From contig CBDBGH010000003.1 of the NCBI GenBank assembly GCA_965205265.1, positions 2,592,001 to 2,656,000 on the forward strand: DNA of 64,000 bases, read 5' to 3'. The number at the start of each line of letters is the position of its first letter. Position 1 is the stretch's first letter. The translations under genes were made by a program, and so were the position numbers. Shown here piece by piece: positions 3,001-24,006 of this stretch. The notes under the pieces are model-generated. The model was not told where the DNA came from. It was given only the letters and a program-made list of their open reading frames with translations, and did not search any database. Source of the stretch: Alphaproteobacteria bacterium. GTDB taxonomy: Bacteria > Pseudomonadota > Alphaproteobacteria > Bin95.

Positions 3001-6000
3001 CCGAAGGTCGGCGTCGCGTTCGCCACCACCTCCAGCGAGAAGGTCAGCTCGGCCTTGTCGCCGTTGTTGTCGGTCGCCACCAGCGTGTAGGTCGAGGCAG
3101 ACTTCACCGCCGTCGGCGTGCCCACCACCCAGACGTTGCTGTTCTGGAACTGCAGGCCGGTCGGCAGGGTTTCCTTGACGCTGTAGGTCACCGGGCTGTC
3201 GCCGCCGGTCGCCAGGGGGAAGAAGGTCGACCGGTTGTACTTGTTGACCGCGAACACGAGGTCCGGGATCGACGCCCCGTCCGGGAAGGACGGCACCGCG
3301 TTGGCGGTCACCGCGATGGTGAAGGTCAGCGTGTCGGAATCCGGGTTGGTCGCGTCGCTGTCCGTCACCTTGTAGGTGTAGGTCGTGGCGTTCTGCGTCG
3401 TCGTCGGCTTGCCGGTGAGCTTGCGGGTCGCGGGATTGAAGCTCAGGCCCGCCGGCGGGTTCGGGGAGATGCTGTAGATCAGCGCGCCGTCGCCGCCGGT
3501 CGCCGCCGGCAGCGTCAGGTCCACCGCGCGGAGTTGCGGAAAGGACTGGGCCGCAACGGTCTCGGAGCCGAAGTCCGGCACCAGGTCGGTCACGCCGTCG
3601 TCATCGGTCAATGTCAGGGCGGCGCACACAAACTGCGTGTTGGCCACGCCATTGAAATTACCAATGTCGCACTTCCGCGTGAGCAGTCCGGAATTCGACA
3701 CGTCACTCGGATACGCATGCACCACGAGCGTTTTGTTCACCCCGACACGGTCGTTGTTGCGCGCCGTGATCGTCACCGTGCCGGTGCTCGTGGTCGCGCC
3801 CGCCGCGATCGTCAGCGTCTTGTTCGTGCTGAAGGAGAAATCCGTGCCTTCGACCAGCTCAGTCCCCGCATGGTCTGGATCGGAAGCGGCCTTGACGGTT
3901 ATCCGGACTTCCCGGGACACCGCAGCGCTGAGCGATGCAGTGACCGTGGCCGAGCCGCCGTTCTCGGAGATCGACGATGAACTCAACGCCAGCGTCAGGG
4001 TCGGCCGGGTCCCCGACACCGCGATGGTGAAGGTCAGCTCGTCCGAGTCCGGATCGCTGGCATCGCTGTCCGTCACCTTCCAGGTGTAGGTCACCGCCGA
4101 CTGCGCCTCCGTCGGCGTGCCGGTGATCTGCCGGGTGTTGGCGTTGTAGCTCAGCCCCGCCGGCAGCGTCCCCACCAGCTCGTAGTTCAATGCACCGTCG
4201 CCGCCCGTCGCCGCCGGCAGGGTCAGCGGCGTGATCTGCGTGTTCCGGGTGTAGGACTGGTTGGAGATGGTGTTGGTGCCGAACGTCGGCACTTCGTCGA
4301 TCACCGTCCCCTTCGCCGTGCCGTTGATGCGAAGCTTGAAGGAATTGGTCCACGTCAACCACGTTCCGGACGTCGCGCCCCGGTTTCGATACAGGTTGCC
4401 GTCGCCGAGGCTCCAGCCAGCCAAACCGGTCTCGGCGTCGCTCGCGGTGACATCTACGCCCAAAATTCCGGTGTCGATGTCAACAACCACAAAGTAGGGG
4501 GTGTTCGCGGTCAGATCGAGGCCCGGGTGGGTGTAGGTGCGCGCGCCTGCCGTCGACGACCCCGTCAACGTGCCCAACACGGCACCCGGCTGATCTCCCG
4601 TCGCGCTGTTGACTGTTACGGTAACGCTGGTGGCATTGGAGAACCCGGCGAATTCGACGCTGGTCAGCCTGTAGCCGTCCGGGTTGCTGCCGGTGGTGAA
4701 TGCCAGAGCCTGATCGAATTGTGACAGATTAGCCGCGACATTGGCATTGGTCTCATCATGGTTGCTGACCAGCACGGAGTCGCTTGCGCCACTCGGCCCG
4801 GAGAAGGTTTGCGGCCCGGAGAAGACTTGCGGCGCGGCGCGGAATTGTGGCCTGTCGTCGTCTCTCACCGTCACCGACGCGCGCTTTGCCGTGCCGAGCG
4901 TGTAGCCGGTGCCGCCGGCCAGCGTCACCGTCACGCTGCCGTCGGGCTCGTCGTCCCCGTCGCCCGTCGTGACGACACGGTAGGTCCCGGTCGTGGCGCC
5001 CCCGGCGATGGCGAGCGTCTTCGCACCCTCGTCGGCCGAGGCCACGAAATCGCCGTTGGCGGACTCGCTCACGGTGAGGTTCACCGTCAGACCGGCGGCC
5101 GGCGCCACACTCGACAGCGTCACCGTGAACTGCGCCGCCGTCCCCTCCGTCACCGGGGAGGTCCCGGCCGCGATGGTGGCGGCCGGCTTGCCCGGCGCGT
5201 CGTCGTCCACGTCGGTCACGCCCACCGTCACGGTCGCCTCGGTGTAGGCCGCGCCGTCGCTCGCCCGCACGCGCAGGCTGTAGGCCCGCGCCGGGGTCGC
5301 GAAGCTCTCGAAATCCTCGCCGCGCCCGCGGTAGGTGATCGCCCCGCTCGAGGAGATGTCGAACACGTTGCCCGTGTTCCCGGACTCGATGCTGTAGGCG
5401 AGCGTGTCGCCGGCGTCCGCATCCGTCGCCGAGACCGTGCCCACCGACACCGGCGTCGCGCTGCCGTCCGCATTCTCCGCCAGCGTGAAGCGGTAGCTCG
5501 CTGCGCCGAAGGCGGGCGCGCTGTTCGGCGCGGACGCCGCCGCGCCGGTCCGCGTCCCGGTGACCTCGCCGTGGGCCAGCTTCCAGTAGCCGCTGTCGAA
5601 CACCCGGACCTGGACGTCGTACACGGTGTCGGGATCGAGGCCGTTGATCCGCGCGCTCGTCGGATGCCTGCCTTCCTCGACCGTGACGACGACGCCGCGG
5701 CGATGGTGGTAGGCCTGGCTGCCGGTCTTGTACCAGACGGAATAGATGAAGGCGTCGTCGACCTCGTCCCAGGTGACGTCGAGCCTGTCTCCGGAGCCCG
5801 GGACCGCGCTCACCGTCAGGTTCGGCACCGCCGGAACGTCCCGGGCCTGCGCGGGAAGTGCGGCGAGCGCACCCAGCGACAGGAGGAGGAAGGCCCCGGC
5901 GAGGGCGCGCCGGGCTCCGGACCGGAGCCCGGCGAAGACGGGAAGGAGGAAGCGGGAAGCGGGCCCGCCGCGCGGCGGTCGGGACGAACCCGAAAGGGCT

Positions 6001-6110
6001 AGGTCAGAGGAGCAGTCCCGGCGTGGGGACGGATGAAGGCGAGAGGCAAGACACAGGAGCCCGCTCGGCGCTCGGCGCTCGGCGCTCGGCGCTCGGCGCT
6101 CGGCGCTAAA
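1..6110 (-). CDS. Giant multidomain surface/adhesin protein (FN3, cadherin-like, Calx-beta-like, putative Ig/He_PIG repeats); runs off the left edge; 5' end frameshifted at a heptamer repeat
   Basis: Manual translation in the frame with codons starting at position = 2 mod 3, spot-checked at 1-60, 361-420, 1681-1740, 3001-3060, 4681-4740 and 5821-6110. Signal peptide ...RRALAGAFLLLSLGALAALPAQA|RDV. FN3 (LDVTW...YDLRYR...YQVQVRATN), cadherin (APAF..ASYSFTLAENADGS...VGTVSATDAD), Ig-like (LPAATGGDG...LPAGLS...TGTPT) and Calx-beta-like (TSPVTEGTAA.FTVTL...DDEPDG) modules. Absent from the ORF track because there is no stop in the window. Confidence 0.93.
587..2444 (-). repeat. Two near-identical ~0.6 kb cadherin+FN3 modules within the surface gene (about 587-1184 and 1849-2444)
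   Basis: Long shared DNA stretches, e.g. caggtcccgctcgtgccctcccggtagcgcaggtcgtagc and tcgtagttctcgccgctgccggtataggtgatcgcgcc, occur in both copies. Confidence 0.9.
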
Positions 6111-6178
6111 TTATATACGAGGCAACGAAACACCGATGTCAAGCTCTTGTCCGGAAAACGCAAACGCTCCATGACCAT
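5999..6178 (-). other. Out-of-frame 5' segment of the surface protein gene (59-aa OFF-phase product MVMERLRFPDKSLTSVFRCLVYNLAPSAERRAPSAERRAG...)
   Basis: ATGs at 6178 and 6172 read through the repeat to TAG at 6001-5999; 7 or 4 repeat units would join them to the long ORF. Confidence 0.7.
6062..6107. repeat. Simple sequence repeat (CGCTCGG)x6 + CGCT in the 5' coding region of the surface protein gene
   Basis: Read directly: cgctcgg x6 at 6062-6103, then cgct. Confidence 0.98.
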
Positions 6179-6539
6179 ACCCCGAATCCAATCCCCGCAT
6201 GCGCGGGCACGATAGACCGGTGGAATGGAAAACGCCAGATGCGGCCGCTGTCAAGCGCCGCCATTCGCCGCCGGGTCCGCCACGCGGACAGTCGGTCGCA
6301 AGCCTGCGGACACTCCGGTCATCCATCGCGACATAACGCCGGCGCCGTGACGGTCCGCAAATTCGCTGATAGGGTGCCGCCGGGTATCGTGGTCGGCGTC
6401 GGGAGCGCTCGACGTGGGATCGTTCCTCGGGGGGTGTGCTGGCGGACTGCCAGATCGACAAGACCCCTCGTTGGGGTGAATCCTCTTACAGTATGCTTAC
6501 GCTGGCCCGATTCCAACAGTAGCCGGTCGGGCCGCGAAC

Positions 6540-8609
6540 ATGTCACAAGATACTGAAAATACATCGAAAAAGTCCGTTTCCGGCGGTGGAATACGCATCG
6601 GAGTGGATGTCGGCGGCACCTTCACCGACTTCTCCGCCGTCAACGACCGGACCGGCGAAACCCATGTCTTCAAGCGCCCCTCGACGCCGGACGACCCGAG
6701 CCGCGCCATCCTGGAGGGCATCCGGGAGATGGCGGACGCCTGCGGGATCGCCCTCGACGAGGTTTCCCGGCTCGCCCACGGCACGACGGTCGCAACCAAT
6801 GCGCTGCTCCAGGGCAAGGGCGGCCGGGTGGCGCTGGTCACCACCGAAGGCTTCCGGGACCTGCTGGAGATCGGCCGGCAGGTCCGCCCGCACATGTACG
6901 ATTTCCGCCGCAGCTTTCCGGCCCCGCCCGTGCCGGCGGAGCGGCGCTTCGAGCTTGCCGAGCGCATGGATGCGGCGGGCGAGCCGGTGCGCGCGCCGAC
7001 GGAGGCGGATATCGAGGCGGCCGTGGAGGCGGTGCGCGCGAGCGGCGCGGAGGCCTGCGCCGTCTGCTTCCTGTTCGCCTATCTGAACGGGGCGCATGAG
7101 CGGGCGCTGGCGGATGCGCTCAGCGCCGCGCTGCCGGCGCTGCATGTCTCGCTCTCCTCCGAAGTGCAGCCGGAGTTCCGGGAGTTCGAACGGTTCTCGA
7201 CCACGGCCGTGAACGCCTATCTGCAATCGGTCATGGAGCGTTACCTCGGCCGGCTGGAAGAAGGCCTTTCAGCCGTAGCGCCCCGCGCCAGCCTGGGCAT
7301 CAACCAGTCGAGCGGCGGGCTGATGTCGGCGGCGCGCGCCCGCGCCTTCCCCGTCCGCACCGCGCTTTCGGGGCCGGCGGCGGGCGTCGTCGGCGCGGTC
7401 CACGCCGCCCGCAGCGCCGGCTTCGGCGACCTCGTCACGCTCGACATGGGCGGCACCAGCGCGGATATGGCGCTCATCCGGGGCGGCGAGGCGGACATTG
7501 CCTATGAGCGCGCCGTGGCGGGCTTTCCCATCCGCCTGCCGCAGATCGACATTGCGACCATCGGGGCGGGCGGCGGCTCCATCGCCTGGTTCGACCGCGA
7601 CGGGCTGATGAAGGTCGGCCCCGGGAGCGCCGGCGCCGACCCCGGCCCCGCCTGCTACGGGCGCGGCAACACGGAGCCGACCGTCACCGACGCGAACCTG
7701 CTGCTTGGGCGGCTCAGCCCGCGCGGCCTGCTGGACGGCGGCATGCGGCTCGACGAAGGCAGGGCCCGCGCCGCCTTCGAACCGGCGGCCCGGCGCCTCG
7801 GCCTTTCGGTCGAGCGCACGGCGGAAGGCGTGCTCGACATCGTGGCCGCCAACATGATCCGCGCGATCCGCACGGTCTCGGTGGAGCGCGGCCACGACCC
7901 GCGCGGCTACGTGCTGGCCGCCTTCGGCGGGGCCGGGCCGCTGCATGCGCGCGATGTGGCCGCCGGTCTCGGTATCGGCAAGATCCTGGTGCCGCCCGCG
8001 CCCGGCATCGTGTGCGCGGAGGGCCTGCTGGTCTCGGACCTCCGCGAGACCTTCACCCGCAGCGAGCGCATCGCCGTCTCGCGCAAGGCGTTTGACCGCA
8101 TCGCGGCCATTCTGGAAGAGCTGGAAGAACAGGCCCGGCTCTGGTTCGCAGGCGAACCGGGCGCGGAAGGCCGGCGGACCGAAGCATCGCTCGACATGCG
8201 CCATGTCGGGCAGAATTTCGAGCTCGCCGTGGCGTTGCCGGACAGGCTGGACGAGCTCGGCGACCGGTTCCTCGATGCGCATGAGTCCGCCTACGGCTTC
8301 CGCAATCCGGAGGACCCGGTCGAAATCGTCAATCTGCGCCTGACGGCGAAGGCCCGCCTCTACCGGGCGCCCGAAACGGAATTGCCGCCTGCCGACGGGC
8401 CGCCCGCGCCGAGGGAGCGCCGGCCCGTCCGCTTCGCGGGACAGGAGTTCCCGGAGACACCCGTTTACGACCGCGCCCGGCTCGGGGCCGGCGCCCTTGT
8501 CGCCGGGCCGGCCGTCATCGAACAACTCGACGCCACCGCCGTCGTCTGGCCGGGCGACGCGGCCGCGGTGGACGCCCACGGCAACCTCACCGTCCGGATC
8601 GCACCATGA
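6540..8609 (+). CDS. hyuA: Hydantoinase/oxoprolinase subunit A
   Basis: IGVDVGGTFTD, HGTTVATN, SGPAAG, DMGGTS, IGAGGGS, GADPGPACYG motifs. Confidence 0.93.
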   Translation: MSQDTENTSKKSVSGGGIRIGVDVGGTFTDFSAVNDRTGETHVFKRPSTPDDPSRAILEGIREMADACGIALDEVSRLAHGTTVATNALLQGKGGRVALVTTEGFRDLLEIGRQVRPHMYDFRRSFPAPPVPAERRFELAERMDAAGEPVRAPTEADIEAAVEAVRASGAEACAVCFLFAYLNGAHERALADALSAALPALHVSLSSEVQPEFREFERFSTTAVNAYLQSVMERYLGRLEEGLSAVAPRASLGINQSSGGLMSAARARAFPVRTALSGPAAGVVGAVHAARSAGFGDLVTLDMGGTSADMALIRGGEADIAYERAVAGFPIRLPQIDIATIGAGGGSIAWFDRDGLMKVGPGSAGADPGPACYGRGNTEPTVTDANLLLGRLSPRGLLDGGMRLDEGRARAAFEPAARRLGLSVERTAEGVLDIVAANMIRAIRTVSVERGHDPRGYVLAAFGGAGPLHARDVAAGLGIGKILVPPAPGIVCAEGLLVSDLRETFTRSERIAVSRKAFDRIAAILEELEEQARLWFAGEPGAEGRRTEASLDMRHVGQNFELAVALPDRLDELGDRFLDAHESAYGFRNPEDPVEIVNLRLTAKARLYRAPETELPPADGPPAPRERRPVRFAGQEFPETPVYDRARLGAGALVAGPAVIEQLDATAVVWPGDAAAVDAHGNLTVRIAP

Positions 8610-10192
8610 CCGCACTCGACCCCATCGGCCTCGAAATCCTCGCCAACGCGCTGCGCTCCATAACCGACGAAACCTTCGCCGCGCTGATGAAGAGCGCCTA
8701 CTCCACCAATATCAAGGAGCGGCACGACCACTCGACCGCCATCATGGACGCGAAGGGACGGCTGATCGCGCAGGCGGAGCAGTCCCTGCCGATCCACATC
8801 GCGTCCATGAGCGGGCTGATGGAGTGCCTGCTGGCTCGTTACGGCGACGATATCGAGGAAGGCGACATCGTCATCGCCAACGACCCGCACATAGCGGGCG
8901 GCACGCACCTTCCCGACATCAACATGGCCGCGCCGGTCTTCGCGGACGGGCGCATCGTCGCCTGGGTCTGCAATATCGCCCACCACGCCGATGTCGGCGG
9001 CATGGCGCCCGGATCCATGGCCGGCGGCATGTCGGAAATCTACCAGGAAGGCCTGCGCGTGCCGGTGGTCAAGCTCTTCCGCAGGGGCGAGTTGCAGAGC
9101 GAGCTGTTCGACCTCGTGCTGCTGAATGTGCGCCTGCCGAACGAGCGGCGGGGGGACTATTTCGCCCAGGTCGCCGCCTGCAATCTGGGGGTGAGGCGCA
9201 TGGCGGAGACCATCGAGGCCTATGGCGCCGATACCGTCCTCGCCGCCTTCGAGGACATGCTGGCGCGCACTGCCGGACGCATGGCGGACGCCATCCGGGC
9301 CATCCCGGACGGCACCTACCGCTTCCAGGACGTCATGGACGATGACGGCATCGAGACCCGCGACATTCCCATCGTGCTCACCGTCGAGAAGAAGGGCGAA
9401 CGCGCGCGCTTCGACTTTTCCGGCACTGCGCCGCAAGTGCCTGGCAATATCAACGTGACCATGAACGCGACCGTCGCCGCGGTCACCTACACGCTCAAGG
9501 CGCTACTCGACCCGGAGGTGCCGAACAACCAGGCGGTGATCGACTGCGTGGAGATATCCGCGCCGCGCGGCTCGCTGCTCAACGCCGTCTTCCCCGCCCC
9601 CGTGGCGGCGCGGGCGCATACCTGCCAGCGGATCATCGATGTCGTGTTCGGCGCGCTGGCGCCGGCCGTGCCGGACCGCGCGCCGGCGGCCGGCAACGGC
9701 GCCAACACCACCGCCGTCTTCTCCGGCATCGACCCTCGCACGGGCGAGGGCTACCTCTATCTGGAAACGCTGGGCGGCGGGGCCGGCGGCTGGCCGGGCG
9801 GCCACGGCAAGGACGGCGTGCAGGTCGGCATCACCAACACCTCCAACCTGCCGGTCGAGGCCATCGAGACCGAATATCCTCTCCGGGTCGAGCGTTACGG
9901 CCTGCTGGAGGGCTCCGGCGGCGCAGGGCGGTTCCGCGGCGGGCGTGGGCTCTACCGCGTCGTGCGCCCGGTCGGGCATGACTGCCTGTTCAACGGCGCG
10001 GGCGAGCGCTTCTCCAACGCCCCCTGGGGCCTCGCCGGCGGGAAGCCCGGCGGCCGGGGCCGCTTTGCGCTGCTGGACGGTGCCGGGGCCGAAACCCCGC
10101 TTGAGATCAAGCCGTCGGGCGTCATCGTGCGCGAGGGCGAAGGGCTGCGCGTCGAGACCCCCGGCGCGGGCGGGTTCGGGTCCCCGTCGTGA
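8606..10192 (+). CDS. hyuB: Hydantoinase B/oxoprolinase family protein
   Basis: SAYSTNIKERHDHS, NDP..GGTHLPD, HHADVGG, ETPGAGGFG; overlaps the hyuA stop. Confidence 0.93.
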   Translation: MTALDPIGLEILANALRSITDETFAALMKSAYSTNIKERHDHSTAIMDAKGRLIAQAEQSLPIHIASMSGLMECLLARYGDDIEEGDIVIANDPHIAGGTHLPDINMAAPVFADGRIVAWVCNIAHHADVGGMAPGSMAGGMSEIYQEGLRVPVVKLFRRGELQSELFDLVLLNVRLPNERRGDYFAQVAACNLGVRRMAETIEAYGADTVLAAFEDMLARTAGRMADAIRAIPDGTYRFQDVMDDDGIETRDIPIVLTVEKKGERARFDFSGTAPQVPGNINVTMNATVAAVTYTLKALLDPEVPNNQAVIDCVEISAPRGSLLNAVFPAPVAARAHTCQRIIDVVFGALAPAVPDRAPAAGNGANTTAVFSGIDPRTGEGYLYLETLGGGAGGWPGGHGKDGVQVGITNTSNLPVEAIETEYPLRVERYGLLEGSGGAGRFRGGRGLYRVVRPVGHDCLFNGAGERFSNAPWGLAGGKPGGRGRFALLDGAGAETPLEIKPSGVIVREGEGLRVETPGAGGFGSPS

Positions 10193-10986
10193 GCCCTGTC
10201 CGGGTGGAGCGGGAGGGGATCGCCCTTCACGTCCTGCTGACGCGGCCGGAACGCCGCAACGCGCTGACCCAGGAGACGATGGACGCGCTGCTTGTTGCGT
10301 TCCGGAATGCGAAGGAGTCGGACGCGCGCGCGGTCGTGCTGCGCGGCGAGGGCGGGCAGTTCTCGGCAGGCGGCGACATGTCCATGCTGGGCGACATCCC
10401 GCCGCCTGCGGACCCGGACCCGCTCTTTCCCGTCTATCGCAAGATGGGCCATGTGCTGGAACTGCTGAACGCGCTGCCGCAGGCTGTGATCGCGGTGGTC
10501 GAGGGAGCCTGCACGGGCGGCGGCCTCGGCATGGCCTGCTGCTCCGATGTCGTCATCGTCACCGAGGACGCAAAGATCGGCCTGCCCGAGGCGCGCGCCG
10601 GCTTCATCCCGGCGCAGGTGATCCCCCATATCGTGCGCCGCATGGGCGAAGGCTGGACCCGGCGGCTGGTCGCAACCGGCACGATACTGGACGGTCACGA
10701 CGCGCTCCGCGACGGCCTCGCCCACATTCTCGTATCCGGACGCGAGGAAGCCGACAGGGCGCTGAGGGAGGTGCTGGAGCAGGTCTGCCGCTCGGAGCCG
10801 AACGCGGTCGCGGAGGCGAAGCGGCTGGTCATCTCCGCCTCCGACCGCCCGGTGGACGAAACCCTGGACGACGCCGCCCGCACCATAGCCGCCCTATTGC
10901 GCGCCCCCGCCGCCCGCGCCGGCATAGACGCCTTCCGCGCAAAGCGCCCGCCTCCCTGGGCGGAAGAGGACGGTGACACCGGATAG
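10189..10986 (+). CDS. Enoyl-CoA hydratase/isomerase (crotonase) family protein
   Basis: RPERRNAL, FSAGGD, GGGLGMA, GLPE motifs. Confidence 0.9.
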   Translation: MSPVRVEREGIALHVLLTRPERRNALTQETMDALLVAFRNAKESDARAVVLRGEGGQFSAGGDMSMLGDIPPPADPDPLFPVYRKMGHVLELLNALPQAVIAVVEGACTGGGLGMACCSDVVIVTEDAKIGLPEARAGFIPAQVIPHIVRRMGEGWTRRLVATGTILDGHDALRDGLAHILVSGREEADRALREVLEQVCRSEPNAVAEAKRLVISASDRPVDETLDDAARTIAALLRAPAARAGIDAFRAKRPPPWAEEDGDTG

Positions 10987-11239
10987 CAGCAGGAAGCTGC
11001 GCTCCGATTTCAAGGACCGAAAACTTATCGGCGGCGCGATCTACAAGGGCCATGGCGATGCCGGGCTGCTGACAGACAACGCCTGCGCCGGCGGCTGAAG
11101 CGCGGGCTTGGGCCGCCCAGCAGTAGGGCTGCGGCCGCACAGGACGTCGGCGCGCCGTCCGGAGAGGCGGCGAGAGCACGCAAATCGCGGCAAGAGAAGC
11201 GAATTGTTCGAAATAATTGAGTAATATTTCTCTATATGA

Positions 11240-11267
11240 CTTGCGTTTTCAGAAAGTGTGCTATAAT
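11240..11267 (+). promoter_or_regulatory. Putative sigma70 promoter with extended -10 (cassette A)
   Basis: TTGCGT (11241-46), N15, TATAAT (11262-67) preceded by TGc; AT-rich upstream. Confidence 0.6.
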
Positions 11268-11274
11268 GGGTTCG

Positions 11275-11470
11275 AGGGAGTGGAGTCCGCGCGGACCGCT
11301 TCCCGCCCGCGCCGGCCCGGTGCGGAACGACCCCGATTCAGCCGACAGGCGAAGTGCGCCCTGTGCCTGCCTCGCGCACGCGCAATCAGGCGCGCGAACC
11401 GCGCCGCCGCGAAACGTGCGCCCGCCCGCGCACAGGCGCCCGCGCAGGATACGCGCGGTAAAGGGTCGCT
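11275..11470 (+). other. Conserved structured leader / candidate ncRNA of cassette A
   Basis: Homologous to 23700-23905 (-): 33-nt identity at 11379-11411 vs 23764-23796 and 16-nt identity at 11430-11445 vs 23730-23745. Confidence 0.65.
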
Positions 11471-11525
11471 CCGATGCCGGGACGGGGCGCCTGATGAACG
11501 CGAGACGAACGAAGGAGCCGCACCC

Positions 11526-11960
11526 ATGCCCGTGCTCGACCCGACCCTCTCCCTCTCCTCGCGCCAGGAAGCCTTCCGCAACCACTATTATGAAAATACC
11601 AGAGTAAGCATGTCATTCCATGACACGCCGCAACAGCCCGCCCGTCCAGCCGGCGTCGTCCCCGACGGCGCGAAGCGTCGATCCGGGACCTCAGGCGGCC
11701 CGCCCGAAGATAACTACAACCCCGAACGATCCTCCCGCAAGCGGGCCGATGGCGAGCGCCCGAGCGAGGAGGAACGCGCCGAGGGCGCGGAAACCGACTG
11801 GCTCTACCAGCGCCGCAACAACTACACGGAACTCCACGACCCCTGGTCGCCGGAGAACATCGAACGCCGTCGCCGGGACAGCCTCAACCGGCTCGAAAGG
11901 GCCGGCCCCTTCAACCCGCCCCGAAACGCCGGTTCCGCCCCCGACCATGACATTTCATGA
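11526..11960 (+). CDS. Orphan hypothetical protein (144 aa) of cassette A, possibly degenerate
   Basis: GAAGGAG RBS before the ATG; MPVLDPTLSLSSRQEAFRNHYY...; stop lies within the CATGAC array. Confidence 0.5.
   Translation: MPVLDPTLSLSSRQEAFRNHYYENTRVSMSFHDTPQQPARPAGVVPDGAKRRSGTSGGPPEDNYNPERSSRKRADGERPSEEERAEGAETDWLYQRRNNYTELHDPWSPENIERRRRDSLNRLERAGPFNPPRNAGSAPDHDIS
11654..11693. repeat. REP-like palindrome inside the cassette A ORF
   Basis: cgtcgtccccgacggcgcgaagcgtcgatccgggacctc closely matches the reverse complement of 22953-22992. Confidence 0.7.
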
Positions 11961-11985
11961 CATTTCATGACATCCCATGACACTT
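11946..11985 (+). repeat. Four tandem 10-bp units, consensus CATGACATTT
   Basis: catgacattt catgacattt catgacatcc catgacactt; two more degenerate units at 11609-11626. Confidence 0.95.
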
Positions 11986-12037
11986 CGCCAGGGAGCCCGC
12001 CATGTGCCGGTCCATGAACCTCAGCACATACCCGCCC

Positions 12038-12925
12038 TCAATCCCGTCCGGCGATGCGGTCTGCCAGCGCCAGAGTGCGGCGGGCCTTTTCGACGATGGG
12101 GTAATCGACGAAATAGCCGTCCACCTGGATGGAGGCGGAGCCGGCGGCCTCGGCTTCGTCGAAGGCGGCGACGATGCGCCGTGCGCGTGTCGTCTCCTTC
12201 TCTGTCGGCGAGAAGGCGTCGTTGACCGGGCCCACCTGGCTCGGGTGGATGCAGAGCTTGCCCTGGAAGCCGAGCGCCAGCGCGCGCCGCGCCGAGGCCG
12301 CGAAGGCCTCCGTCTCGCGCAGTTCGATGAACACCGTATCGACTGGCGGCTCCAGCCCGCCCGCCCGCGACTCCATCACCATCGCCGCGCGCGCATGCGC
12401 CAGTTCCGCCTCGTCCAGAGACCAGCGCATCCCCACATCGAGCGTGTAGTCGCCGGCGCCGAAAGAGAGCCGCCGGAGCCGCGAGCGGCAGGCGGCGATC
12501 TCCTTCAGGTTGGACATGCCGAGGCCGGTCTCCACGATAGGCATGAGGTCGATGCTGCCGACCTCCAGCCCCGCCTTGCGCTCGAGCTGGGCGAGTGTCC
12601 AGTCGATGGTCTGGAGCATGGCCGCGCTTTCGAGTTTCGGCAGCACGATGCCGTCGAGCCACGGCCCGACGACCGCTTCCATGTCCCCGAAGCACCACTC
12701 GGTCTCGGCGGCGTTGACGCGCACGAAGCCCTTGCAGGGCCGCGGCCGCCTGAGCGCGGCGACGGCGTCGGCGCGGGCGGCCGGTTTCTCTGCGACCGCA
12801 ACCGCGTCCTCAAGGTCCAGGATCGCCGCGTCCGCGCCCGCCCGGAACACCTTCTTCGCCATGCGGGCATGGTTGGCCGGCGCGAACAGGAAGCTCCGCC
12901 AGGGTCCGGTCGAGGACAGGGCCAT
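12038..12925 (-). CDS. CitE-like (HpcH/HpaI aldolase/citrate lyase family) CoA-ester lyase
   Basis: RSFLFAPA, LDLEDAV, VRVN, GKLCIHPSQ. Confidence 0.92.
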   Translation of the reverse strand: MALSSTGPWRSFLFAPANHARMAKKVFRAGADAAILDLEDAVAVAEKPAARADAVAALRRPRPCKGFVRVNAAETEWCFGDMEAVVGPWLDGIVLPKLESAAMLQTIDWTLAQLERKAGLEVGSIDLMPIVETGLGMSNLKEIAACRSRLRRLSFGAGDYTLDVGMRWSLDEAELAHARAAMVMESRAGGLEPPVDTVFIELRETEAFAASARRALALGFQGKLCIHPSQVGPVNDAFSPTEKETTRARRIVAAFDEAEAAGSASIQVDGYFVDYPIVEKARRTLALADRIAGRD

Positions 12926-12934
12926 CTCGGCGCC

Positions 12935-13711
12935 TCACATCGCGGTCATGCCGCCGTCGATGGTCAGGTTCTTGCCGGTGATGTAGTTGGCCCCCGGCGC
13001 AAGCAGGAAGCAGACGCTGGGCGCCACGTCGCTGGTCTCGGCGTAGCGGCCGAGCGGTATGCGGGCCATGGTCTGGGCACCGAATTTCGGCCCCCGGATC
13101 ACTTCCGTCATCGGCGTGACGACCGTGCCGAACGCCACCGAATTCACGCAGATGCCGTAGCGCGCCCATTCCCGCGCCGCGCTCATGGTGATGCCGAGCA
13201 CGCCGGCCTTGGCGGCGCCGTAATTGATCTGGCCGATGGTGCCGGCCGTGCCTGCGATGGAGGACACATTGACGATCTGGCCGGGGCAGACGCCGAACTC
13301 GCCGGTCTCGGACTGTTTGATCATCTGCCTGCCGACCGACTGCAAGACCAGATAGACGGCCGTCAGGTTCACATTGATGACCTCGTCCCAGTATTCGCGG
13401 CTCATCTTGTGGATCATGGCGGCGCGGACGATACCGGCATTGTTGACGAGCCCGGTGATCGAACCCCACTCGCCGACCATCGCCTCGACGATGCCGTCCG
13501 CAAGGCCCTGGTCGGTGACCGAGCCGTGGAAGCCCATCGCCTTGTCGTCTCCGAGTTCGGCGACGAGGCTGTCTATGCCTTCCTTGTTGAGATCGACGAC
13601 GGCGGCGCGGCCGCCCATGGAGACGACGGTGCGCGCGACCTCGCGGCCGACGCCCTGCGCGGCGCCCGTGACCAGGACATTGCGGCCTTCGAGACTGAAG
13701 GGATTGCTCAT
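12935..13711 (-). CDS. Short-chain dehydrogenase/reductase (FabG-like)
   Basis: TGAAQGVG, NNAG, YGAAK. Confidence 0.93.
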   Translation of the reverse strand: MSNPFSLEGRNVLVTGAAQGVGREVARTVVSMGGRAAVVDLNKEGIDSLVAELGDDKAMGFHGSVTDQGLADGIVEAMVGEWGSITGLVNNAGIVRAAMIHKMSREYWDEVINVNLTAVYLVLQSVGRQMIKQSETGEFGVCPGQIVNVSSIAGTAGTIGQINYGAAKAGVLGITMSAAREWARYGICVNSVAFGTVVTPMTEVIRGPKFGAQTMARIPLGRYAETSDVAPSVCFLLAPGANYITGKNLTIDGGMTAM

Positions 13712-13788
13712 TTCGGCGTTTCCTTATGCATTCGGGTTCCGTTACCGTAGCCGCAACTGCGCCGGCGGCAAGCGGGAGAAAGGGACGC

Positions 13789-14847
13789 ATGACGGAGAAT
13801 CCGCGTTGGACGAGGCGGCCCGACGGGTCCACCTGGGGCGATTGGGGCCCAGACGACCAGCTCGGCCGGCTGAACCTGCTGACACCCGAACGGGTGCTGA
13901 CCGCGCGCGAGGAAATCCGCCTGGGCGAAGTCTATTGCCTGTCCCTGCCGCTGGACTATCCGGGCCGCAATGTGCTCAATCCCCGTCGTCATCCGCCCGT
14001 ACTGGAGCCGACCCGGGGACCGGACGGCGCGCCGCGCTACAACTTTCCGCTCCAGATCGAAGACCCCCGCCATATCGATGTCGGCTGCGACGACCGGGTG
14101 CAGATGACGCTGCAATATTCCTCGCAGTGGGACGCCTTCTGCCACATGGGGCAGATGTTCGATGCGGACGGCGACGGCATCCCGGAAATCCGCTTCTACA
14201 ACGGCTTCAGGGGCGGCGAGGACATTATCGGTCCGGTGGACTACAACGCCGACGGCTCGCAGACGCCCCGCCCGGAAGCGATGGGCGCGCGCAAGCTCGG
14301 CATCGAAACCTTCGCCGAAAAGGGGATTGTGGGGCGCGGCGTGATGATCGACCTGGAGCGCTTCTTCGGGCGCGAGGGGCGCCATCTCGTCACATATGAA
14401 GAGCTGATGCGCGTGCTGGAGGAGACCGGCGCGACGGTCGAGGAAGGCGATCTCGCCTTCTTCTACACGGGCTTCGCCGACCTGCTGCTGGAGATGGAGA
14501 AGGAGCCGGACGGCCCCCGCCTCGCCAATAGCTGCGCTGCGCTCGACGGGCGCGACGACCGGCTGCTGCAATGGGTCACGGACTCGGGCGTCGCCGCGCT
14601 CTTCGCCGACAACTACGCCGTCGAGCAGTCGCCCGCCCGGCCCATGCCGGGAGAGCGCTACGCCAACTCGCCGCTGCACCAGCACTGCCTGTTCAAGCTC
14701 GGCGTGCCGCTGGGCGAACTCTGGTATCTGGGCGACCTCGCCCGGCGGCTCCGGGAGCTCGGCCGGACACGCTTCTTCACCACCTGCCAGCCGCTCCGCC
14801 TGCCGGGCGCGGTCGGCTCCCCCGCCAATCCCGTCGGCATCGTCTGA
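13789..14847 (+). CDS. Cyclase family (kynurenine formamidase-like) metal-dependent hydrolase
   Basis: WGDWGPDDQLGRLN, SSQWDAFCH, LGELW, GAVGSPANP. Confidence 0.88.
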   Translation: MTENPRWTRRPDGSTWGDWGPDDQLGRLNLLTPERVLTAREEIRLGEVYCLSLPLDYPGRNVLNPRRHPPVLEPTRGPDGAPRYNFPLQIEDPRHIDVGCDDRVQMTLQYSSQWDAFCHMGQMFDADGDGIPEIRFYNGFRGGEDIIGPVDYNADGSQTPRPEAMGARKLGIETFAEKGIVGRGVMIDLERFFGREGRHLVTYEELMRVLEETGATVEEGDLAFFYTGFADLLLEMEKEPDGPRLANSCAALDGRDDRLLQWVTDSGVAALFADNYAVEQSPARPMPGERYANSPLHQHCLFKLGVPLGELWYLGDLARRLRELGRTRFFTTCQPLRLPGAVGSPANPVGIV

Positions 14848-14876
14848 CCCGCCAACCAGGAAAGCGACCGCATCCC

Positions 14877-15281
14877 ATGGCCATCACCAAGGGCATCGAC
14901 CGGCTCCTCGCCGCCGCCCGCGCGAAGATCGAGGAAATCCCCGCCGCAGACGCGCTGGCGCTCCGGGACGACGATTCCGTGCAGATCGTCGATATCCGCG
15001 ATGTGCGCGAACTCGACCGCGACGGCATGATCCCGGGCGCGCTGCATGCGCCGCGCGGCATGCTGGAATTCTGGGTCGATCCGGCAAGCCCCTATCACCG
15101 CGATGTGTTCGCAAGCGGCAAGAAGTTCGTCTTCTACTGCGCGAGCGGCTGGCGTTCGGCTCTGGCAACGGAGACGCTGCAGGACATGGGCCTGGAACCC
15201 GTCGCCCATATCGAAGGCGGTTTCACGGCCTGGAAAGAGGCCGGCGGCCCGGTCGCCGAACGGCCGCGCAAGGGCGGATAG
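14877..15281 (+). CDS. Rhodanese-like domain protein
   Basis: VDIRD..E, PRGMLEFW, YCASGWRS, IEGGFTAW. Confidence 0.9.
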   Translation: MAITKGIDRLLAAARAKIEEIPAADALALRDDDSVQIVDIRDVRELDRDGMIPGALHAPRGMLEFWVDPASPYHRDVFASGKKFVFYCASGWRSALATETLQDMGLEPVAHIEGGFTAWKEAGGPVAERPRKGG

Positions 15282-15309
15282 GCGGCGCTCCCGACATATT
15301 GCCTTCTTC

Positions 15310-15325
15310 CGGCACGCAGTTTGCT
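15310..15325 (+). promoter_or_regulatory. Sigma54 (-24/-12) promoter upstream of amtB
   Basis: cGGCACgcagtTTGCt matches TGGCAC-N5-TTGC; context is nitrogen-regulated genes. Confidence 0.75.
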
Positions 15326-15371
15326 TCTTACTAGGGGAACGGTCGTCCTCTGCAGGAGTTCGGAAGCGGCA

Positions 15372-17034
<1,663 letters not shown>

Positions 17035-17164
17035 CGGAGACATTGCGTCCCTGAAGCAGTTCGGGCGGCGCTGTCAGTTTGGTAGCGCCGCTTGCGCTTG
17101 CCGACCGCGACACCTGGCGGGTAGCCTTCGCCCTCCCGGCCCGCAAACAAAGGAAGCCGCGCCC

Positions 17165-18250
17165 ATGACGACGGTCCGAGCCATGACCTTCGGCGTGCAG
17201 ACCGCGCCCTCCACCGATGTCCGCAAGTCCGACAAGATGCTCTATGACGAGGTGATCGAAGACGTGAAGCTCGCCGCGGCGCTCGGCTACGAATCGGTCT
17301 GGATGCTGGAGCACCATTTCTCGGACTACTACCCGACGCCGAGCCCACTGCTCTTCATGGCGCATGTCGCCGCGCTTTGTCCGGATATCGGGCTCGGCAC
17401 CTCGGTGCTGGTGCTGCCCTGGTACCATCCGGTGCGCATCGCCGAAGAGGTCGCGATGCTGAACTCGCTGACGCGCGGCACCCTGCATCTGGGCCTCGGG
17501 CGCGGCACCGCGAAATCCGAATACGACGCCTATGGTGTGTCCATGCCGGAGGCGCGCGGCCGGTTCGCAGAGTCGCTGGACATCATCCGCAAGGGCCTCT
17601 CGGGGCAGGAATTCACCCATGACGGGACCTACTACAAGGTGCCGCGCCCGGTCCGCCTGCGCCCGGAGCCGGTGGACAAGCCGGTCAGGTTCTACGGCGC
17701 CATCGGCAGCCCGCAAAGCGCCGGCGTGATGGCCGGGCTCGAACTGCCACCGCTTTGCCTCTCCACCTTCCCGGCGCGGCTGCTGGAGCGGATCCTGGCG
17801 ACCTGGGACGAGAGCGCGCCCGCAAGCGCGGACCGGACCAAGGCCATCTCGATCAAGATGCTGATCGCCGACAGCGACGAGGAGGCGCTCAAGCTCGCGC
17901 GGCGTTATTTCCCGCCTTATTTCTCGATCCAGGCGGACCACTACGAGGCGGACGCGAACCCCTGGGAGAATATCGAGGAATACCAGCAGTTCTCCCGCAT
18001 GTTCGCCAATCTGCGCAAGATGGCGGACCCGGACGAGCTCGGCCCCTATTGCGAGATGAACCTTGTCGGCTCGCCGGAGACCGCCGTGGAGCGCCTCAAG
18101 GGCTATGCCGCGCTCGGTTTCGACTATGCGCTGGTTTCCGCCGCCACGCCCGGCATGCCCAAGGACCTGCAGCGCGAGGTCATGGCCCGCTTCGCCCGCG
18201 AAGTCGCCCCGCACTTCTCGCCGGCGTTCCGGGCGGAGGCGGCGGAGTAG
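17165..18250 (+). CDS. LLM class flavin-dependent oxidoreductase
   Basis: WMLEHHFS, HPVRIAEE, GLGRG. Confidence 0.9.
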   Translation: MTTVRAMTFGVQTAPSTDVRKSDKMLYDEVIEDVKLAAALGYESVWMLEHHFSDYYPTPSPLLFMAHVAALCPDIGLGTSVLVLPWYHPVRIAEEVAMLNSLTRGTLHLGLGRGTAKSEYDAYGVSMPEARGRFAESLDIIRKGLSGQEFTHDGTYYKVPRPVRLRPEPVDKPVRFYGAIGSPQSAGVMAGLELPPLCLSTFPARLLERILATWDESAPASADRTKAISIKMLIADSDEEALKLARRYFPPYFSIQADHYEADANPWENIEEYQQFSRMFANLRKMADPDELGPYCEMNLVGSPETAVERLKGYAALGFDYALVSAATPGMPKDLQREVMARFAREVAPHFSPAFRAEAAE

Positions 18251-18424
18251 CGCCGCGAAGCGGCCTCGGTGACGAGCGTCGGAGCGCGGCCCGATCCGGC
18301 TGCGTTTCGGCAGTCGGAACCGCCAACGATCCCGGCATCCCGATCCGTCACGACTCCTGATGACATAGCGGCGCGTCTCCGTGAATATAGGCGTCGATTG
18401 CCCGAACAGCGAACCGGAGGCGCC

Positions 18425-19408
18425 ATGACCCTCAATGCCGAGCTCAGCCGCAGGATCTACACGGACATGTGGCGAATCCGCCTCTTCGAGGAAGAAGCGC
18501 TGCGCCAGACCAGCCTCGGCTCCGTCAAGGGCACGCTCCACACCTATTGCGGCGAGGAGGCCATCGCGGTCGCGGTCTGCGCGCATCTGCGCGACGACGA
18601 CTATGTACTGGGAACCCACCGCAGCCACGGGCACTGCCTCGCCAAGGGCGCGCCGATGGACCGCATGATGGCGGAGCTGTTCGGGCGCGCGACCGGGAGC
18701 TGCCGCGCCAAGGGCGGTTCCATGCACATCGCCGACTTCTCGCGCAACATACTGGGCGCGAACGGTATCGTCGCCGGCGGCATCGGCCCCGGCACCGGCA
18801 CGGCGCTTGCGAGCAAAATCCGCAAGAGCGACCAGGTGTCGGTCGTCTTCTTCGGCGACGGGGCGGCGGCGCGCGGGCCCTTCCATGAGGGCCTCCTGTT
18901 CGGCTCGCTCTGGAAGCTGCCGGTCATCTATGTCTGCGAGAACAACGGTTACCAGCAATGGGTGCCCCGGAAGAATGTGGCGGTGGTGGACTCGGTGGCC
19001 GACATGGCGGCCTCCTACGCCATCCCCGGCGTCTCGGTGGACGGGCAGAACCTGGAGGCGGTCTATGAGGCCGCCGGCGAGGCCGTCGCCCGCGCCCGCA
19101 ATGGCGAGGGCCCGACCTTGATCGAGGCCCGCACATACCGTTTTTACGGCCACAGCCTGGGCGACATGGAGGAATACCGCTCGCGCGAGGAAGTCGATGA
19201 CTGGCGCGAGAACCGCGACCCGATCAAGCTGTTCAGCGCGTGGATGAAGGAGCGCCAGTGGCTGGGCGACGATGAGGACGAGGCCATCCAGGGCGAGGTT
19301 GCGGCGGAGGTCTCGCGGTCCGTGGCGTATGCCGAGGAAAGCCCGTTGCCGGAGCCGGAGGACGTGCTGACCGACGTGCTGGATACGGAATGGAGGGTTT
19401 CGGCATGA
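18425..19408 (+). CDS. TPP-dependent dehydrogenase E1 alpha (acetoin/2-oxoacid dehydrogenase-like)
   Basis: THRSHGH, GGSMH, FFGDG...ENN, TYRFYGHS. Confidence 0.93.
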   Translation: MTLNAELSRRIYTDMWRIRLFEEEALRQTSLGSVKGTLHTYCGEEAIAVAVCAHLRDDDYVLGTHRSHGHCLAKGAPMDRMMAELFGRATGSCRAKGGSMHIADFSRNILGANGIVAGGIGPGTGTALASKIRKSDQVSVVFFGDGAAARGPFHEGLLFGSLWKLPVIYVCENNGYQQWVPRKNVAVVDSVADMAASYAIPGVSVDGQNLEAVYEAAGEAVARARNGEGPTLIEARTYRFYGHSLGDMEEYRSREEVDDWRENRDPIKLFSAWMKERQWLGDDEDEAIQGEVAAEVSRSVAYAEESPLPEPEDVLTDVLDTEWRVSA

Positions 19409-20376
19409 GGACCATCGCGCTCCGCGATGCGCTCCGGGAAGCGCTGCATGAGGAAATGGCCCGCGACGAGAGCGTCTTCGTCATCGGCGAGGACGTGATC
19501 GCCCATGGCGGCCCCTATACCGTCACCCAGGGCATTGTGGACAAGTGGCCGGACCGCATTTTCGAGACGCCGATTGCGGAGGCGGGCATTGTCGGCCTCG
19601 GCGTGGGCGCGGCGCTGGCCGGCATGCGCCCGGTGGTCGAGATCATGTATGTCGATTTCATCACCTGCGCGATGGACGAGGTCGTCAACCAGGCCGCCAA
19701 GATGCGCTACATGACCGGCGGCCAGGCGAGCGTGCCCATCGTCATCCGCCTGCCCTGCGGCCCCGCCCGGCTGGTCGCGGCCCAGCATTCGCAGATCATG
19801 GAATCCTGGTTCATGCATGTGCCGGGCCTCCAGGTGGCGGCGCCGAGCACGCCCTATGACGCAAAGGGCCTGATGAAGACCGCGATCCGCAGCCCCGACC
19901 CCGTGGCGTTCTTCGAATACAAGGCGCTCTATGTGAGCGAGGGCGAGGTGCCGGAAGACGACTATGTCATCCCCTTCGGCAAGGCCGACATCAAGCGCGA
20001 GGGCGAGGACGCGACCGTGGTCGCCATCGGCGGCATGGTGCCGCGCGCGCTGGAGGCCGGCATTGCGCTCGAGGACGAGGGCTACGACATCGAGGTGGTG
20101 GACCCGAGGACGCTCGCCCCGCTCGACATGGAGACGATCCGCGAGTCCGTGCGCCGCACGGGCCGCGCCGTGGTTTGCGAGATGGATTCCTCCTTCGCCG
20201 GCACCGGCGCGGAGATCGCGGCTGCGCTCGCCGAGCAGTGCTTTCACGACCTGCGCGCGCCCATTGTGCGGGTCGGCAGCCCGCATGTGCCGATGCCCTT
20301 CGCCGAGGAGCTGGTCAACGTCACGGTTCCCGATGCCGGGGACGTCTCGGATGCCGTGCGCAGGGTCATGGCCTGA
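19405..20376 (+). CDS. Dehydrogenase E1 beta subunit
   Basis: IGEDV, TPIAEAGI, VNQAAK, AAQHSQ. Confidence 0.93.
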   Translation: MRTIALRDALREALHEEMARDESVFVIGEDVIAHGGPYTVTQGIVDKWPDRIFETPIAEAGIVGLGVGAALAGMRPVVEIMYVDFITCAMDEVVNQAAKMRYMTGGQASVPIVIRLPCGPARLVAAQHSQIMESWFMHVPGLQVAAPSTPYDAKGLMKTAIRSPDPVAFFEYKALYVSEGEVPEDDYVIPFGKADIKREGEDATVVAIGGMVPRALEAGIALEDEGYDIEVVDPRTLAPLDMETIRESVRRTGRAVVCEMDSSFAGTGAEIAAALAEQCFHDLRAPIVRVGSPHVPMPFAEELVNVTVPDAGDVSDAVRRVMA

Positions 20377-22710: not shown

Positions 22711-22837
22711 TCTGCATGCCCGGAGTTCATATGCCGTAGCCGTTTCAGGCATGAAGCCGTCCACGCATTGACCTCCTTCCCGGCCTGTGGGCGAAGCCCG
22801 GCAAAGGCCCGTCGCGCTGAAAGACGGCCTCCCGTCC

Positions 22838-22992
22838 CCCTGCCCTCGCGAAAGCGGGGGCACCCCGGTTCCCCTTCAGCGTCACCCCGGCCGGAACGGA
22901 GCGAAGCGGAGTGGAGAGCCGGGGTCTCCCTGCGGCGTCGCCCCTGCCGCGGGAGGTCCCGGATCGGCGCTGACGCGCCGTCCGGGACGACG
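22838..22992. repeat. Cluster of REP-like hairpins
   Basis: ccctcgcgaaagcggggg; cgtcaccccggc...gccggggtctc; gaggtcccggatcggcgctgacgcgccgtccgggacgacg. Confidence 0.7.
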
Positions 22993-23083
22993 GCAAAAGC
23001 TCATGGGTTCTTGCATGTAGCCGCTGGTATAAGGCAAGCAGGATGGAGACGATCCCCGCCGCAAGCGGGAGGGCGGGCATGCT

Positions 23084-23699: not shown

Positions 23700-23905
23700 G
23701 GAAGCGGGTCCCTGTTTCGCGCGTCTCCCGCGCGGGCGCCTGTGCCGGCGCGGGCGGGCGTTACGCGGCGGCGCGGTTCGCGCGCCTGATTGCGCGCGCG
23801 AGGCGGCGGGCGCACGTCTCCCGTCGGCTTCCCAGGGGTTTTCAGAAAGTGGCGCCGCTCGGCCGCGCAGCACCCGGGGAGGCGGCTCCGGAGTCCGCTT
23901 CCCTG
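23700..23905 (-). other. Conserved structured leader / candidate ncRNA of cassette B
   Basis: Homologous to 11275-11470 (+). Confidence 0.65.
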
Positions 23906-23911
23906 GGGGCC

Positions 23912-23938
23912 ATCATACCATAATCCGCCAGATGTCAA
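23912..23938 (-). promoter_or_regulatory. Putative sigma70 promoter with extended -10 (cassette B)
   Basis: TTGACA (23938-33), N15, TATGAT (23917-12) preceded by TGg; same geometry as the cassette A promoter. Confidence 0.65.
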
Positions 23939-24006
23939 GCCCATACAGGGAACATAATTCAAAAATATCGGAAATTGTTCATATTATCGAAGGCAGGAAA
24001 GGGCAG

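Follow-up and report, generated by a model that had tools for sequence, protein, structure and literature searches.

Positions 11275 to 11525 of the window (the whole 64,000 nucleotides of alphaproteobacterial DNA under analysis) make up the front, non-coding module of a family of cassettes dispersed over the chromosome. The module is real and undescribed, and its status as a structured RNA is partly supported; full-text literature searches turned up no paper on such cassettes or on such a leader. Most likely the cassette is mobile, or once was, and its front module is transcribed. The reading put forward here, tentatively and with a probability of about 0.4, is that the module would have a promoter of its own, would be transcribed as the leading (5') portion of the cassette RNA and would act in cis, that its first hairpin (P1) would genuinely form in the RNA, at the transcript's 5' end or close to it, where it might protect that end or be held by a protein, and that the GC-rich core would be a recognition site, either for the cassette's terminase-like protein or for a host factor. 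As regards the core, a protein-binding or recombination site remains as likely as a role in RNA.

The genome (5.70 Mb in three contigs) was searched by blastn with both leaders of the window as queries. The core was found at 72 loci, all of them on contig C3, one being a fragment of 36 bases; among the loci are two pairs of exact duplicates, one of which stems from a stretch that the contig contains twice. The two leaders in the window, copy A on the plus strand and copy B on the minus strand, have an identical order of modules. Aligned with each other, they show a mean column identity of 75% and several indels, and they share a 29-mer, CAATCAGGCGCGCGAACCGCGCCGCCGCG, at 11383-11411 in copy A and at 23792-23764 in copy B, which matches the window twice as against no matches in 100 shuffles. 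The original prediction, made from the letters of the window, spoke of an invariant core common to both copies. The core is what it was said to be, and the two copies are as described, but they are 2 of 72 loci, and the family to which the module belongs had been overlooked. Across 64 non-redundant copies, the 29-mer is found with no mismatch in 18, one mismatch in 20, two in 23, and three in 3.

Alignments of 40 short copies and of 57 copies gave the order of modules within a cassette: an AT-rich block with a promoter-like element; P1; a second hairpin; the core of about 135 bases; a hairpin called P8, with the ribosome site and, in some copies, a gene after it; and, at the 3' end, a block of CATGACA heptamers. 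The heptamers lie one helical turn (about 10 bases) apart. The conserved part of the 3' block reads CATGCCCGAA..TATGCGCC..GCATGC and closes with ATGACATnnCATGACA, and often a second such module follows about 43 bases on. The heptamer pair occurs 83 times in the genome and is found no more than 1.5 kb downstream in 64 of the 72 loci (up to 700 bases away in 47, 701-1100 in 5, and more than 1100 in 12). In the window, the parts of the two cassettes lie as follows:

10968..12027, plus strand: insertion that holds cassette copy A, at a site empty in at least nine congeners; ends approximate
11199..11232, plus strand: AT-rich 5' block of cassette A; A-type homology stops on the 5' side at about 11190-11203
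11241..11267, plus strand: promoter-like element of copy A, with TTGCGT at 11241-11246, a 15-base spacer, and an extended -10 TGCTATAAT at 11259-11267
11276..11304, plus strand: hairpin P1 of copy A, arms GGGAGTGG (11276-11283) and CCGCTTCCC (11296-11304)
11308..11324, plus strand: hairpin P2 of copy A (CGCGCCGG...GGUGCG), predicted from single-sequence folds only
11331..11465, plus strand: GC-rich conserved core of copy A, which contains the 29-mer and is conserved in sequence, without covariation
11467..11489, plus strand: hairpin P8 of copy A, CGCUCCG / CGGGGCG in its subfamily
11511..11960, plus strand: ribosome site (GAAGGAG, 11511-11517) and remnant of the terminase-like gene of copy A (ATG at 11526; stop ends at 11960)
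11610..11625, plus strand: heptamer pair ATGTCATTCCATGACA at the deletion junction of copy A
11947..12019, plus strand: 3' end of copy A, with four phased CATGACA heptamers (11947-11982) and a degenerate second module (12001-12019)
23912..23985, minus strand: 5' block and promoter-like element of copy B, AT-rich at 23985-23953, then TTGACA (23938-23933), a 15-base spacer, and TGGTATGAT (23920-23912)
23877..23903, minus strand: hairpin P1 of copy B, arms GGGAAGCGG (23903-23895) and CCGCCTCCC (23885-23877)
23843..23875, minus strand: second hairpin of copy B, after which comes CUUUCUG; at this place sister B-type copies carry a U-run and look terminator-like
23710..23838, minus strand: GC-rich core of copy B, which contains the 29-mer
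23708-23686, minus strand: hairpin CUUCC/GGAGG of copy B, overlapping the ribosome site
ATG at 23680, stop ending at 23084, minus strand: gene of copy B for a 198-residue acidic protein
22708-22693 and 22665-22650, minus strand: 3' heptamer modules of copy B

The promoter-like block and first hairpin that had been proposed for both copies are present in both, with the caveat that the 8-pair stem of P1 in copy A has two mismatches; related copies read GGGAGGCG/CGCTTCCC or GGGAAGCGG/CCGCTTCCC. The second hairpin of copy B, with too few T, is not flagged by a terminator scan. Between the 198-residue gene of copy B and its 3' heptamers (22831-23030, minus strand) lies an unrelated repeat of about 200 bases, which has at least five further copies on C3 at 83-94% identity.

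The cassettes are mosaics, in that the core is common to subfamilies whose flanks and genes differ. The full A-type cassette is 1.27 kb long and occurs in seven copies that are 92-100% identical. Its gene (L001:478-1398 in an intact copy) encodes 307 residues, of which residues 11-85 match the Pfam family Terminase_2 (E 4e-13; 50.6 bits against a cut-off of 26.1); the protein also matches small-terminase families of PHROG. Terminase_2 is matched seven times in the genome, every time by an A-type cassette. To judge by its sequence, copy A is an internally deleted cassette of this type. Its remnant open reading frame (ORF), 11526-11960, is in frame, and about 590 bases are gone from the middle of the gene relative to the intact copy. 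Copy B represents another form, whose roughly 900 bases of promoter, leader and 198-residue acidic gene are 89-97% identical among 8 other copies. The acidic protein falls in no Pfam family, and in PHROG it weakly matches a single family, whose function is unknown; an Atlas look-up returned only unnamed clusters with scores below 0.9. No match was found to the terminase-like protein in a phage collection, nor to the leader in plasmid and phage collections.

About a dozen cassettes carry the acidic gene and seven the terminase-like gene; most are gene-less. Most are also short, about 450 bases, and a scan of the short cassettes found them mostly without a codon-biased forward ORF between the core and the heptamers. 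Since the gene-less copies retain the promoter-like element, P1, the core and the 3' block, the module would appear to serve the cassette itself and not only the expression of a downstream gene.

It is clear that the core is under strong sequence constraint. The entropy of its columns is about 0.22 bits, about a third of the value in the preceding block (about 0.76 bits). Perhaps such conservation has nothing to do with function: the core could be a selfish or neutral insertion into the leader of an ancestral cassette within the genus, spread along with that cassette and kept uniform by recent copying and gene conversion. Its confinement to one genus, the related cassettes that do without it, its unexceptional overall folding, and the many recent copies (92-97% identity across some 900 bases in the B-type form, 92-94% in the A-type form) are what one might expect in that case. 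One would not expect, however, that copies only 72-80% identical elsewhere keep the 29-mer within three mismatches, nor would neutral decay be expected to produce a roughly 3.5-fold difference in rate between adjacent blocks; and gene conversion restricted to one block of 40 bases in 64 copies would itself need explaining. A selfish or neutral core is for these reasons unlikely.

The arms of P1 differ between copies yet remain complementary. The arms as they occur give -19.83 kcal/mol, against -17.38 kcal/mol when arms are swapped, and none of 2000 permutations did as well. A small covariance model of the hairpin was built, 99 matches from this genome and related records were aligned to it, and 92 distinct sequences were scored. 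Cells are paired in 88.7% of cases, against 84.0% (sd, standard deviation, 0.5) after shuffling, and changed on both sides in 46 cases, against 17.7; neither value was reached in any of 500 shuffles, but the alignment was fitted to its model and the copies are related, their cells not being independent events. The two-sided changes fall in 5 of the 9 pairs, and controls in which the arms were slid pair at 41-68%. On the sense strand, over this genome and its relatives, G-U pairs outnumber A-C combinations (69 against 39 overall, 62 against 12 when the five inner pairs are taken alone), an excess that fits an RNA read from the sense strand; in this genome alone (31 to 25) the comparison is not decisive. 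A first scan of column pairs for covariation, on a MAFFT alignment, was too permissive and was not used. A stricter helix scan found compensatory changes only in P1 and in one CGCG/CGCG pairing, and the pairs predicted by RNAalifold that show changes on both sides number five, all within P1.

P8 is situated immediately ahead of the ribosome site. Three subfamilies, CCCGCCGC/GCGGCGGG, CGCUCCG/CGGGGCG and CUUCC/GGAGG, differ in sequence and keep their complementarity, as well as which only 1 of 2000 permutations did, a figure that reflects very few independent events.

Nearly every copy has hexamers of its own that resemble TTGACA and TAnnAT, separated by spacers that differ in sequence. The extended -10 pattern TGnTAnnnT occurs in 39 of 61 copies (6.4 expected from shuffles), and in combination with a -35 hexamer matching in at least 5 of 6 positions in 20 of 61 (0.15 expected). 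These counts took the place of a first automatic promoter scorer, which had risen barely above shuffles. It is from this conservation that the element is called promoter-like.

A number of results weigh against a module that is transcribed and folded as proposed. Within its commonest subfamily, P8 pairs at 86.8%, no better than shuffles, and it has no excess of G-U over A-C (18 against 15); the stem for the pairing count was drawn by hand because RNAalifold, faced with gaps, predicted almost nothing there. Two long-range helices suggested for the core by RNAalifold and single folds, CCC-GAUUC with GAAUC-A-GGG and GUGCG-CCUGCGC with GCGCAGG-CGCGC, lack covariation (319 and 433 of 2000 permutations). 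Over 57 copies, RNAalifold gives -19.6 kcal/mol, of which the covariation term is only -0.42. In folding, neither leader of the window stands out from shuffled sequence (z -0.63 for each), which was as stable in 50 and 53 of 200 cases. The mean folding z of the family is -1.46, with 18 of 61 copies below -2, and the antisense strand is more stable by 2.9 kcal/mol on average, having the lower energy in 37 of 61. Only in 19 of 32 copies does the native leader leave the ribosome site less accessible than a shuffled one does; the 19 comprise 8 of 9 A-type copies of this genome, 4 of the 13 from relatives and 7 of the 10 B-type copies. A consensus promoter scan flags the promoter of neither window copy, because the spacer is 15-16 bases and also because the first hexamer of copy A matches in 3 of 6 positions. 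Lastly, no transcript was shown in public runs, which were examined as assembled contigs and are in that form blind to starts, strands and levels. One metatranscriptome contains a small share of the words searched for, and four of its contigs match family members at 85-95% identity; the only one of its contigs to touch P1 continues upstream of the predicted start. A second run, of doubtful RNA origin, touched the heptamer end only.

The original prediction offered a riboregulator, a small RNA, or a protein-binding or recombination site. In its favor are the non-coding nature of the stretch, the conserved promoter-like element ahead of it and the compensatory changes in P1; against it, the core lacks covariation and the window leaders fold no more stably than shuffles. 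The segments that had been proposed to pair with the core's motifs were correctly located (11356-66 and 11485-94), and the alternative folds built on them find no covariation in the helices of the core. Nor did Rfam 15 recognize the module: there were no matches in the whole window and none at E up to 1 in four further cassettes, and a search of 11100-11650 at E up to 10 gave only three matches at chance level (9-12 bits against thresholds of 48-74). Since the core is kept as a sequence and not as a fold, it is likelier to be a recognition site for a protein than a structure resembling a riboswitch.

Recognition could also take place on DNA. In that case the core, perhaps together with P1, would be a docking or crossover site that works with the 3' heptamers in recombination, spreading or packaging, and any transcription would be incidental. 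A core conserved without compensatory pairs, a P8 that lacks a G-U excess, and an antisense strand that folds slightly better are all in keeping with this. So is the fact that the core is the block common to mosaic subfamilies whose flanks and genes differ, and the sole protein of the autonomous form is a predicted DNA-binding helix-turn-helix protein of the small-terminase type, from its match to Terminase_2. By eye, AATCAGG of the core, read on the other strand as CCTGATT, agrees at 5 of 7 positions with the CCTGACA heptamers of distant cassettes. However, the predominance of G-U over A-C in the inner pairs of P1 on the sense strand fits RNA and not duplex DNA, the module is always downstream of the promoter-like element and oriented with it, and comparison of occupied with empty sites at two places defined neither terminal inverted or direct repeats nor a target duplication. 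We consider a pure DNA site somewhat unlikely, though the most serious of the alternatives to a cis-acting leader.

With a promoter-like element in each copy and most copies gene-less, one might also take the cassettes for some 70 genes of a family of small RNAs that act in trans, the protein genes and heptamers being secondary. The hairpin and U-run of B-type copies come about 70 bases downstream of the start and would yield a short RNA consisting of P1 and a terminator. Against this, a scan of the window copies found no terminator-like site downstream of the core, complementarity to targets was not found (no search aimed at it was made), the 3' block is conserved alongside the leader and would be needless to a free-standing small RNA, and the contigs of public runs supplied no evidence of expression. 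A trans-acting family therefore seems improbable.

The leader is not coding. The three sense frames across the core are open in 43, 36 and 38 of 57 copies, and none is open in all. Between conserved anchors, 16 copies have a segment of 44 bases and 32 copies one of 46, and because such differences are not multiples of three, the reading frame shifts. Three-base periodicity is not consistent, the most variable codon phase differing from block to block, and the short ORFs that follow the core read the same conserved DNA in three frames. DNA so rich in GC often has long open frames, and it is to this that the idea of a conserved small peptide owes what appeal it has; given the frames, the segment lengths and the shifting phase, it can practically be dismissed. 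The inference that indels between the copies make a conserved peptide less likely was sound, and the codon-type conservation in a single frame that would have contradicted a regulatory role was looked for and is absent.

How far does the module extend beyond this genome? The leader is matched in 14 of 16 congeners, 13 of them with about 19-22 scored matches each and one, G013, with a single weak match. It is matched in none of 8 genomes of two sister genera, and just once, weakly, among 16 genomes of other families. Among 400 further genomes of the class, the core gave only one match, of 33 bases. In the genomes searched, the core is not found outside the genus.

The terminase-like protein reaches further. 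It has 366 close relatives at E up to 0.001 and matched 79 distinct loci in public genome records, nearly all titled as metagenome-assembled genomes (MAGs). A profile of the leader, run with nhmmer, matched 50 of the 79, always just upstream of the terminase-like gene. Ten of the loci without a match, whose proteins are 34% to about 60% identical, were inspected. Several of them (L130, L137, L139 and L151) have, after an AT-rich element that looks like a promoter, a leader of just some 35 bases. Phased CCTGACA/CATGACA heptamers follow the gene in 7 of the 10, and an eighth has TGTTGAC/TGTTTAC repeats. From these coreless distant cassettes and from a coreless mini-cassette in one congener, described below, the core would seem to be one genus's addition to an older cassette design. 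At five of the distant loci (L135, L139, L149, L151 and L130) a different, inverted-repeat element with ends like CCGTCATTCCGACCGGAGCG ... TCCGGTCGGAATGACGG is found on both sides; from its sequence it looks like a separate miniature transposable element.

Two of the cassettes were seen to occupy sites that are empty in some congeners. By Pfam, copy A is flanked by genes for an enoyl-CoA hydratase and an HpcH-type aldolase, and copy B by genes for a LysE exporter and a proline racemase; both point at the 3' ends of their neighbors. In at least nine congeners (among them G014, G006, G004, G016, G008, G011, G009, G015 and G002) the gap between the hydratase and aldolase genes is about 21-40 bases, so the window from about 10968 to 12027 is an insertion, and in two other species something is inserted at the same intergenic site. 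The site of a second cassette, L169, measures 31-61 bases between the flanking genes in three congeners and 350-1130 in others. Presence/absence polymorphism at orthologous sites, as in miniature inverted-repeat transposable elements (MITEs) and insertion sequences, is found therefore for two cassettes, whose sites are empty in 9 and 3 congeners. The two ends of a cassette are unlike each other. Since the junctions do not align base for base with the empty sites, the exact ends of the cassettes and any target duplication are not readable from these two comparisons. At the intergenic site of L169, one congener has a mini-cassette of about 350 bases (L182, G010:C2:1492950-1493550). It opens with a promoter-like element, continues with P1 and a U-run, and ends in the 3' block, here with three CATGACA heptamers; the core is absent.

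It is instructive to compare the cassettes with known systems. In phages such as SPP1 (G1P) and P22 (gp3), a small terminase (TerS) goes with a pac site. The cassettes resemble this arrangement in the small-terminase domain of their protein and in the row of short repeats, with a period of about 10 bases, found where the A-type gene ends. Unlike TerS genes, the seven cassette genes are solitary and dispersed, do not lie beside a large terminase in a virion module, and are preceded by a long GC-rich leader, with no match in the phage collection; some 60 further cassettes have no terminase-like gene at all. Among other phages, those of the T4 type have PeSL units and the Cluster K mycobacteriophages have start-associated sequences, both of them repeated units in which a promoter and a stem-loop head small gene cassettes. 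Here too a host-type promoter is followed by a hairpin, the units are repeated many times per genome, and the small genes are exchangeable, but the setting is a bacterial chromosome, among metabolic genes, and there are about 70 units with an additional core of 135 bases and a 3' block of heptamers.

Looser is the likeness to omega RNA (HEARO), which goes with IscB and TnpB, and to the bridge RNA of IS110 elements, as these are also conserved, multi-copy non-coding modules with a promoter of their own at the end of a dispersed element. The cassettes differ in having no match in Rfam, HEARO included. Both candidates were rejected. Zinc-ribbon domains of the TnpB type are matched 7 times in the genome, as against 72 cassettes; six of these lie beyond 4.69 Mb, in a region free of cassettes, and one lies 2.4 kb from a cassette. 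Of 8 matches of the IS110 type, none is inside a cassette and two are within about 1 kb of cassette remnants. One of these genes (C3:2142645-2142839) is about 1 kb downstream of a cassette (2141421) without 3' heptamers, and another (C3:4157837-4158259) is beside a solitary 3' block (4158821-4158925); the heptamer region may be a target for insertion by IS110-type elements. In phages, a class of candidate structured RNAs has been reported that consists of conserved non-coding elements immediately ahead of terminase genes (PMC10690425). A passage of that paper deals with large-terminase and other phage genes in viral genomes, and has nothing on chromosomal cassettes of the small-terminase type. 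In sum, the leader resembles the promoter-hairpin units of phages, TerS with its pac site and, loosely, the guide-type RNAs of insertion sequences, and it is a member of none of them.

The chromosome has a single-copy large terminase (C3:3818323-3819840), more than 1 Mb from the window, in a compact capsid module that also encodes a major head protein, a tail protein and a LexA-type repressor. No recognizable small terminase is found in this module, and the 13 kb examined contain no cassette. The large terminase of the module is found in 14 of 16 congeners and in all 4 genomes of one sister genus, and genes with Terminase_2 are multi-copy in 11 of 16 congeners. One might speculate that the cassettes are portable start sites, some 70 of them, for packaging by the genes of a podovirus-like particle kept by the host, with the terminase-like protein on the heptamers and the leader as an RNA cofactor or former of an R-loop, by which the site would be opened or marked. 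If so, headful transfer of neighboring host genes would amount to RNA-assisted, genome-wide lateral transduction. The overlap between cassettes and large terminase is imperfect: two congeners (G003 and G013) have the large terminase and no cassettes, and in another (G002, 95% complete) cassettes are present and the large terminase was not found. The link between cassettes and particle for that reason stays hypothetical, and packaging from the cassettes is a long shot. A genome from another family of the class (G033) has 9 matches to Terminase_2 and also a relative, 57% identical, of the large terminase encoded in the capsid module.

If the module acts as RNA, it would be among the most highly repeated of the promoter-driven non-coding RNAs in a bacterial chromosome, within a family whose only protein is predicted to be a DNA-docking protein of the phage type. 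The cassettes give an anatomical handle on whether small-terminase-like proteins have been recruited to ends beyond the packaging of viruses. As about 70 insertions, restricted to one genus, that resemble transcription units, lie amid metabolic genes and often face the 3' ends of their neighbors, they could alter expression in the host. And, being repeats very rich in GC, they provide a clean test case for telling constraint on RNA from constraint on DNA.

The distribution of cassettes along C3 is uneven. The cassettes show no bias in chromosomal orientation (39 plus, 32 minus), and a GC-skew profile of the chromosome gave no usable origin. Beyond about 4.65 Mb, the contig has no copy, and in the remainder there is one per about 65 kb. 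The first 20 kb (1-20000) are repeated exactly at 4632568-4652567, the region 4.63-5.46 Mb has a GC content of 67.2% as against 68.4%, and six of the seven TnpB-type genes lie beyond 4.65 Mb. The contig may have been over-circularized or joined to another replicon. Its first 180 bases (C3:1-180) recur some 10 more times, at 97-100% identity; several of these copies are found no more than a few hundred bases from a cassette, such as those near 2926236, 980422 and 1205846.

Elsewhere in the window, ARAGORN calls a tRNA-like gene with a four-base anticodon (gacg) at 26993-27085 and a tRNA-Tyr with anticodon ata at 38687-38765. Both calls are unusual in GC-rich DNA and may be false positives. An ORF of 1941 residues, with strong codon bias (GC fraction at third codon positions, GC3, of 0.92), occupies 3-5828 on the minus strand.

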